Positions 194 to 353 of a DNA stretch of 353 bases are shown piece by piece (positions within the stretch are counted from its first letter, which is position 1; every line of letters starts with the position of its first letter). The DNA comes from Escherichia coli (GTDB lineage: Bacteria > Pseudomonadota > Gammaproteobacteria > Enterobacterales > Enterobacteriaceae): NCBI RefSeq assembly GCF_003334255.1, contig NZ_QOWU01000255.1; one strand, given 5' to 3'. A program made the position numbers and the translations under genes. Under the pieces are notes generated by a model. The model searched no databases and was not told where the DNA came from. It saw only the letters and a program-made list of their open reading frames with translations.

Positions 194-253
194 TGTCAAG
201 GAAAGAAGTGTCAGGGCCTCGGGTTAACGTTAAAGTTGACTCGGGGCCTTTCC
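194..253 (+). ncRNA. Candidate Sok-like antisense RNA (type I antitoxin), about 60 nt
   Basis: Plus-strand transcript antisense to the toxin leader: a ~19-nt 5' tail (194-212), then a 16-bp hairpin (213-228 paired with 235-250, loop GTTAAA), then TTTCC. The helix has 12 Watson-Crick and 4 G:U pairs on the plus-strand RNA; on the minus strand those 4 positions are C-A mismatches. Size and shape (single-stranded tail plus one terminal hairpin) match the roughly 64-nt Sok RNA of plasmid R1. The 5' end is inferred from a weak promoter and the U-tract is short, so both ends are uncertain. Confidence 0.4.
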
Positions 254-336: not shown

Positions 337-353
337 CAAAAAACCCGCCATCA

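Follow-up and report, generated by a model that had tools for sequence, protein, structure and literature searches.

A prophage-borne hok locus

The window considered here is a stretch of 353 nucleotides from Escherichia coli (contig NZ_QOWU01000255.1 of assembly GCF_003334255.1), and all coordinates refer to this stretch unless another record is named. It is 100% identical to E. coli chromosomes, in which it lies within a lambdoid prophage, between the Ail/Lom gene and unnamed genes and near the tail-fibre genes. The minus strand carries the coding sequence of a 46-residue toxin (13–153, minus; MSQKSL...QCKQ), an open reading frame that RefSeq annotates as a 'Hok/Gef family protein' (WP_000078907.1), and this toxin gene is all that is annotated at the hok locus of the matching E. 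coli chromosomes, with no RNA gene recorded there. The NCBIfam model nearest to the peptide is HokA, which scores 38 bits and thus falls below its cutoff. An identical peptide has been catalogued as entry 72_1589 in a preprint (10.1101/2025.08.07.668861), where it is among the 45 homologues tested and absent from the three that were reported to be non-toxic upon over-expression. Toxicity of the identical Hok, as reported, implies that such a locus needs an antitoxin. The same coding sequence is labelled 'MokW-like host killing' in phage P27 (NC_049925.1, positions 2511–2651 of our record L128), and in other phage records it is either a 'small toxic polypeptide' or unannotated, the naming being inconsistent.

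Relatives of the locus are widespread. They were found in 1,553 of 5,426 complete E. coli genomes (~28%), with as many as 7 sites in a single genome; O157:H7 is one strain that carries the prophage (NZ_CP062774.1, around 1,586,030–1,586,400). Phage records with a relative number 198, and most belong to Stx2a-converting phages. Copies with ~82–85% identity adjoin ogr in P2-like prophages, and a few copies reside on plasmids.

Upstream of the toxin gene, a Shine–Dalgarno sequence (AGGAGG; 162–167, minus) stands 8 nt before the ATG, and in the predicted fold of the full-length mRNA it is paired with CCUCUCC (approximately 177–171) in a pairing of the CCUCUCC/GGAGAGG type. The 5' leader of the hok mRNA (142–301, minus) is delimited by a match to the full length (model positions 1–157) of the Rfam covariance model RF01794. 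Further upstream lies a candidate promoter for this mRNA (308–336, minus), comprising a -35 element TTGCCC (336–331), a 17-nt spacer and a -10 element TAGATT (313–308); transcription would begin near G301, which coincides with position 1 of the RF01794 model. We modelled a 360-nt hok mRNA from the flank-extended sequence (L001 6301–5942) with an assumed 3' end, and in its minimum free energy (MFE) structure nt 1–17 pair in silico with nt 337–354, in the manner of the tac–fbi closure, while the Shine–Dalgarno sequence is paired. The sequence at the mRNA 3' end (CAGCCGAUAUGGCACCC, L001 5942–5966, outside the window) is complementary to that at the 5' end (GGGUGCCUUUCGGCUG, window 301–285). With its promoter, leader, sequestered Shine–Dalgarno sequence, Hok reading frame and 5'–3' closure all intact, the hok module looks functional.

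The remaining edge of the window (337–353, minus) cuts through an intrinsic terminator that belongs to the upstream lom/ail gene, so that its 3' half is included; in the extended record this region (L001 6336–6359) reads CCCGCTGTGATGGCGGGTTTTTTG and is situated just 3' of the Ail/Lom coding sequence. A weak Hrs1 match at 335–353 is this same terminator read from the opposite strand. Separately, in strain NCTC11121 the Rfam family STnc540 has a match of 41.3 bits (gathering score 38) between ihfA and the hok locus (L004 2651–2795), which is unrelated to the module.

The hairpin and the predicted antisense RNA

The first-pass annotation of this DNA had drawn attention to an inverted repeat within the leader region that would form a full helix only as plus-strand RNA, and had taken this asymmetry to mark a probable Sok-like antisense RNA. 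Its description of the repeat is accurate. On the plus strand, 213-AGGGCCTCGGGTTAAC-228 can be read directly from the sequence as pairing with 235-GTTGACTCGGGGCCTT-250 over 16 consecutive positions, closing a 6-nt loop (229–234, GTTAAA), and the helix consists of 12 Watson–Crick pairs together with 4 wobbles (G214:U249, U219:G244, G222:U241 and U225:G238). Each of the four wobbles is a C·A mismatch on the minus strand. Equal stability of the two strands had been named as an outcome that would speak against the proposal; the strands are unequal, with 213–250 folding at -26.4 kcal/mol on the plus strand vs -12.2 kcal/mol on the minus strand (ViennaRNA). The plus-strand value corresponds to z = -6.97, with none of 200 shuffles as good, and the minus-strand value to z = -2.89. 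Longer segments behave similarly: 194–253 folds at -27.1 vs -14.5 kcal/mol, and 194–260 at -31.9 vs -18.0 kcal/mol, with all 16 pairs present in the plus-strand MFE structure.

The hairpin (213–250, plus) would constitute both the body and the presumed terminator of a Sok-like RNA, as judged from folding and from the comparative pairing described below. Its characterization as a weak terminator was fair, for after the helix there follow only U251, C252 and C253; the U run occupies 249–251, and two of its three U's sit within the helix itself. A generic terminator scan of the window made no call at the hairpin.

From its fold, and from its alignment with two curated antisense RNAs of E. coli K-12, SokC and SokB, we predict a Sok-like antisense (antitoxin) RNA of ~63 nt that would extend from 195 to 257 on the plus strand. 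Homology, position and shape all support the original identification of a Sok-like antitoxin RNA, the ends of which are corrected here by homology, the 5' end being G195 and not 194, and the 3' end being ~257 and not 253. G195 was mapped through RF01794, in which model position 106 corresponds to the 5' end of SokC and to window position 195. The 3' end was placed at ~257 from SokB and SokC, the ends of which lie 9–10 nt beyond the stem, and this end is uncertain because UUU followed by CC makes a poorer U tract than that of either K-12 RNA. Over 195–257 the window is identical to curated K-12 SokC at 43 of 64 positions and to curated SokB at 36 of 64, and the three sequences have in common the core GGCCTCGG...CGGGGC. 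The segment lies, as had been suggested, in an antisense position, on the plus strand opposite hok (153–13, minus), within the leader match (301–142) and upstream of the hok Shine–Dalgarno sequence.

The tail-plus-hairpin shape that had been described is likewise recovered in the fold of 195–257, which comprises a 13-nt free tail, the 16-bp hairpin and a short 3' tail, and the predicted folds of SokC and SokB are alike. This segment folds at -30.7 kcal/mol on the plus strand (z -6.2) vs -16.4 kcal/mol on the minus strand; the corresponding values are -21.6 vs -10.9 kcal/mol for SokC, and -22.2 vs -11.8 kcal/mol for SokB. The single-stranded 5' tail (195–212, plus) is presumed to be the region that recognizes the hok mRNA; its nt 1–13 (195–207) are unpaired in the MFE structure, and SokB and SokC are predicted to have free 5' tails of 12 nt each.

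A candidate promoter precedes the predicted RNA. Its -35 hexamer, TTGCCT (159–164, plus), occupies the place that TTGCCG takes in SokB and TTGACC in SokC and is set 17 nt upstream of a candidate -10 hexamer, TAACCT (182–187, plus), which itself lies 7 nt upstream of G195, just as TAAGAT does before the curated 5' end of SokB. The spacing of the candidate is identical to that of the SokB promoter (TTGCCT-17-TAACCT-7-G195 in the window and TTGCCG-17-TAAGAT-7-5' G in SokB). Among the 77 homologous loci introduced below, 75 carry the TAACCT -10 element, and nearly all have a TTGNNN or TGACTC hexamer as -35 element, at a spacing of 17–18 nt. The candidate matches the consensus at 7 of 12 positions, the -10 element alone at 3 of 6, and was not called by a generic promoter scan of the window. 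We consider the null results of the promoter and terminator scans to reflect a limit of threshold and not an absence of signals, because the curated SokB and SokC signals are equally non-consensus. The conservation of the -10 element and of part of the spacer is confounded, because a stem that is itself conserved in the hok mRNA (AGGUUAGCGCCUC) covers the same bases.

The strand of the Rfam model and the comparison across homologues

A search with the Rfam sok covariance model had been recommended as a check on the antisense RNA. Upon running it, RF01794 was found to match the window along the full model, at 301–142 on the minus strand and below threshold, with 41 bits (E = 4.6e-08) against a gathering score of 59. 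On a literal reading, the strand of this match would speak against a Sok RNA on the plus strand. None of five related loci of the clade reached that gathering score, and RefSeq carries no Sok-like RNA because the clade falls below it. The K-12 loci serve as controls for how the strand of such a match is to be read. Curated sokC (L005 653–711) and sokB (L007 820–876) are both ~58 nt and both lie opposite the hok strand, and RF01794 matches these loci on the hok strand (sokC with 118 bits, L005 754–602; sokB with 110 bits, L007 918–767), each match spanning ~155 nt and ending at the hok ATG. RF01794, listed as 'sok antitoxin (CssrC)', is a description of the hok mRNA leader and not of the ~60-nt antisense RNA, and its strand calls are inverted relative to the antitoxin. 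A literature search for 'CssrC' as the origin of the model returned only unrelated papers. Since the controls match on the hok strand, the minus-strand match in the window is therefore no evidence against a plus-strand Sok RNA. The idea that the strand of a covariance match could be used to reject the antisense RNA does not survive these controls, as it would mislead and yield a false refutation.

Homologous loci were gathered from viral contigs and E. coli records by exact matching of a 16-mer that covers the start codon of hok, which yielded 77 loci after ~8 unique matches attributable to chance had been filtered out. In all 46 of the 46 unique variants of the clade the plus-strand 66-mer has a lower folding energy than its reverse complement, with means of -28.5 vs -18.8 kcal/mol. 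A formal count of pairs was confined to the lower 10 pairs of the stem, in 37 distinct sequences, among them the curated SokB and SokC, because in the upper stem MAFFT sets the two main types of hairpin out of register by one column; for the hairpin as a whole we relied on folding, which needs no alignment. Of the cells in these lower 10 pairs, 99.2% are standard-paired, as compared to at most 77% in a control in which the partner was slid by one column. G:U pairs occur at 7 of the 10 lower-stem positions (88 cells), whereas A·C is absent throughout (0 cells; sign test, p = 0.016). An A·C in the plus strand would be a pair on the mRNA strand only. Double changes are seen at 215:248 (G:C to A:U) and at 220:243 (C:G to A:U). 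Covariation is modest, however, with both sides changing in only 2 of the 10 pairs, a count that is reached by 103 of 500 shuffles. As such, the support for a Sok-type assignment is comparative in nature, and homology and the one-sided occurrence of G:U weigh more in it than covariation does.

Within the locus, conservation is lowest in the 5' tail and the hairpin loop, with a column identity of ~0.70–0.73 among 49 unique variants (a mean of 0.70 over 201–209), as against a column identity of at least 0.9 at the base of the stem. Variability confined in this manner to tail and loop (195–212 and 229–234) fits what might be expected of a locus-specific recognition sequence, and it would fit antisense specificities that have diversified among hok/sok copies resident in one genome.

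Individual viral contigs depart from the common arrangement. In one (L127) the whole hok/Sok-like module is present twice, as diverged copies that differ in their Hok sequences, tails and upper stems. Two others (L101 and L053) have a frameshifted hok with an altered C-terminus (…LNLWGGGVCGVLTV and …LNLWGRSLRRSYSVSSRKTAT, respectively) and retain both the Sok-like hairpin and its promoter; in these the toxin may have decayed and the antitoxin may have been kept.

Interpretation and relation to known hok/sok systems

Taken together, we believe that the plus strand of 195–257 probably encodes a Sok-type cis-antisense RNA, the antitoxin of a prophage-borne type I module of the hok family, and we would assign this reading a probability of about 0.85 from the sequence comparisons. 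The hairpin could instead belong to the hok mRNA alone, as a structure of its leader with no antisense RNA involved, the greater stability of the plus strand being a by-product of C·A mismatches that weaken the mRNA hairpin so that it may refold. On the mRNA strand, the Rfam leader model does have a hairpin in precisely this position, the minus strand still beats its shuffles (z -2.9), and the conservation of the promoter is confounded with mRNA structure. Nevertheless, we consider such an explanation improbable, given that the curated SokB and SokC RNAs arise from homologous segments with the same asymmetry, that the TTG of the -35 element falls in the spacer between the hok Shine–Dalgarno sequence and the ATG, where there is little structural reason in the mRNA to preserve it, and yet is kept at 17 nt, and that an active toxin devoid of an antitoxin would be lethal.

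About as improbable, and if anything marginally more so, is the notion that the Sok-like sequence is an inherited relic in decay, its promoter or the whole module having lost function as in several hok loci of K-12. It would accord with a promoter and terminator that are weak by consensus, with the absence of mok and with the frameshifted hok genes of some relatives (the L101 and L053 loci mentioned above). It is difficult to reconcile with the Hok reading frame, Shine–Dalgarno sequence, hok promoter, 5'–3' closure and Sok elements, which are intact here and in most of the 77 loci, with the reported toxicity of the identical Hok (10.1101/2025.08.07.668861), or with the persistence of the module in ~1,550 of the 5,426 complete genomes of E. 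coli and in 198 phage records. We attach the least credence, very little indeed, to a hairpin that has nothing to do with hok, be it the terminator of some other plus-strand transcript or a palindrome serving as a site for protein binding or recombination. A terminator of that kind would have a stable stem rich in GC with a few U's after it, as is seen here, but the U tract is poor and no plus-strand gene that the hairpin could serve lies nearby, the annotated neighbours being without exception on the minus strand. Furthermore, every occurrence of the element lies within a hok leader and can be aligned with Sok RNAs, and its G:U pairs point to a constraint acting at the level of RNA rather than DNA.

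For the Sok-type antisense RNA, the sequences show a hairpin with a conserved strand asymmetry, homology with SokB and SokC, a promoter-like layout and an intact hok module. We can outline how such an RNA might operate, taking its transcription, ends, instability, RNase III dependence and repression of hok by analogy from work on plasmid R1, the K-12 loci and sokW. A constitutive sigma-70 promoter (TTGCCT-17-TAACCT) situated inside the hok translation-initiation region would fire away from hok and give a product of ~63 nt that bears an unpaired 5' tail and a single, very stable 16-bp hairpin, the latter serving to protect the RNA and to end its transcription at the weak U tract. This RNA would be perfectly complementary to the hok mRNA leader, ~30–90 nt upstream of the hok Shine–Dalgarno sequence. 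Its variable 5' tail may nucleate pairing with the predicted apical loop of a leader hairpin (~209–186, minus), from where the duplex would extend to a full ~60 bp; the duplex might then be cut by RNase III, or the leader and its anti-Shine–Dalgarno stem might be fixed in an untranslatable state, or both, and in either event no Hok would be made. The four G:U pairs would allow the antisense RNA to fold tightly and, as C·A mismatches in the mRNA, would leave the corresponding mRNA segment weak and accessible.

The point at which the locus may depart from the established scheme is mok. The first-pass annotation had situated the hairpin just upstream of where the mok start should be, an expectation that the homologues do not back: a usable start codon (an ATG, GTG or TTG that follows the GAGG, precedes the hok Shine–Dalgarno sequence and is in a frame open through to hok) occurs in only 8 of 48 unique leader variants, the window included. 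In the window, a TTG (199–197, minus) opens a 42-codon frame that overlaps hok and is 17 nt from the sole SD-like GAGG (220–217), and in loci that encode the identical Hok (e.g. the L111 variant, in 8 loci) there are stops in all three frames. An upstream reading frame (ATG at 257–255, 22 aa) was considered as a substitute for mok and dismissed, since close relatives have a 1-nt indel that disrupts it. Complementarity of the antisense RNA to a mok translation-initiation region, by which a Sok RNA might be recognized, does not hold for the clade. In plasmid R1, translation of mok up to the hok Shine–Dalgarno sequence is required for expression of hok and is blocked by Sok (PMC9841398). As mok is not conserved, this repression step of R1 therefore cannot be transferred directly to the clade. 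It is tempting to suggest that the prophage clade (Hok cluster '72' of the preprint cited above) does without mok altogether and that its Sok-like RNA silences hok by a route other than mok coupling, a suggestion we advance tentatively and at somewhat less than even odds. Candidate routes would include purely RNase III-triggered decay, locking of the anti-Shine–Dalgarno stem, or a block of a ribosome standby or unfolding site. Were it true, the clade would represent a mechanistic variant within a paradigm type I system, and the lack of a conserved mok frame is the sole feature of the locus that is of possible mechanistic interest. The biology is otherwise what would be expected, in that a toxic Hok needs an antisense partner, and the practical value of the present analysis lies mainly in annotation: RefSeq holds only the toxin coding sequence, RF01794 misses the clade at its threshold, and in reporting the strand of the toxin mRNA the model can mislead an automated assignment of the antitoxin strand.

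The hok/sok systems are the best-studied family of type I toxin–antitoxin modules, and the locus described here may be set against its chromosomal, plasmid and prophage members. SokC and SokB, of the K-12 hokC/mokC/sokC and hokB/mokB/sokB loci, are also cis-antisense RNAs in a hok leader, with lengths of 57–59 nt vs ~63 nt here. They resemble the window in the core GGCCUCGG...CGGGGC, in having G:U pairs at the same two stem positions, and in a gap of ~10–14 kcal/mol between plus- and minus-strand folding. They differ from it in the upper stem and loop and in a U tract that is weaker in the window; the tail of the window is unrelated in sequence to the tails of SokC and SokB, which suggests locus-specific recognition. 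A YUNR/U-turn motif in the target loop was considered and judged too permissive to carry any weight. At the K-12 hokB and hokC loci the annotated mok frames overlap the 5' end of Sok by 9–11 nt, whereas the clade of the window has no conserved frame, and the Hok of the window has HokA, rather than HokB or HokC, as its nearest match.

Sok of plasmid R1 (hok/mok/sok, parB) follows the same logic, being a short, unstable antisense RNA transcribed from a promoter inside the toxin leader. The R1 hok mRNA is closed by pairing of its 5' and 3' ends, and its duplex with Sok is removed by RNase III (PMC9841398). The two differ in their setting, for the R1 module is borne on a plasmid and effects post-segregational killing, whereas the module in the window resides in prophages beside lom or ogr. 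Also prophage-borne is hokW–sokW of the Stx2 prophage Sp5, a module of EHEC Stx2a phages in which sokW has its own promoter and neutralises HokW in a manner that depends partly on RNase III and Hfq (PMC8621323). Identity of the locus with hokW–sokW of Sp5 was considered and rejected, as HokW begins with MKQQKAM (from primer YO-357) and is 51 aa in length vs the 46-aa peptide beginning with MSQKSL found here. No prior description of the antisense RNA of this clade was found; it is unannotated in RefSeq and lies below the Rfam threshold. The toxin of the clade has already been catalogued and tested, and its antisense RNA is very probably an unannotated but ordinary member of the family.
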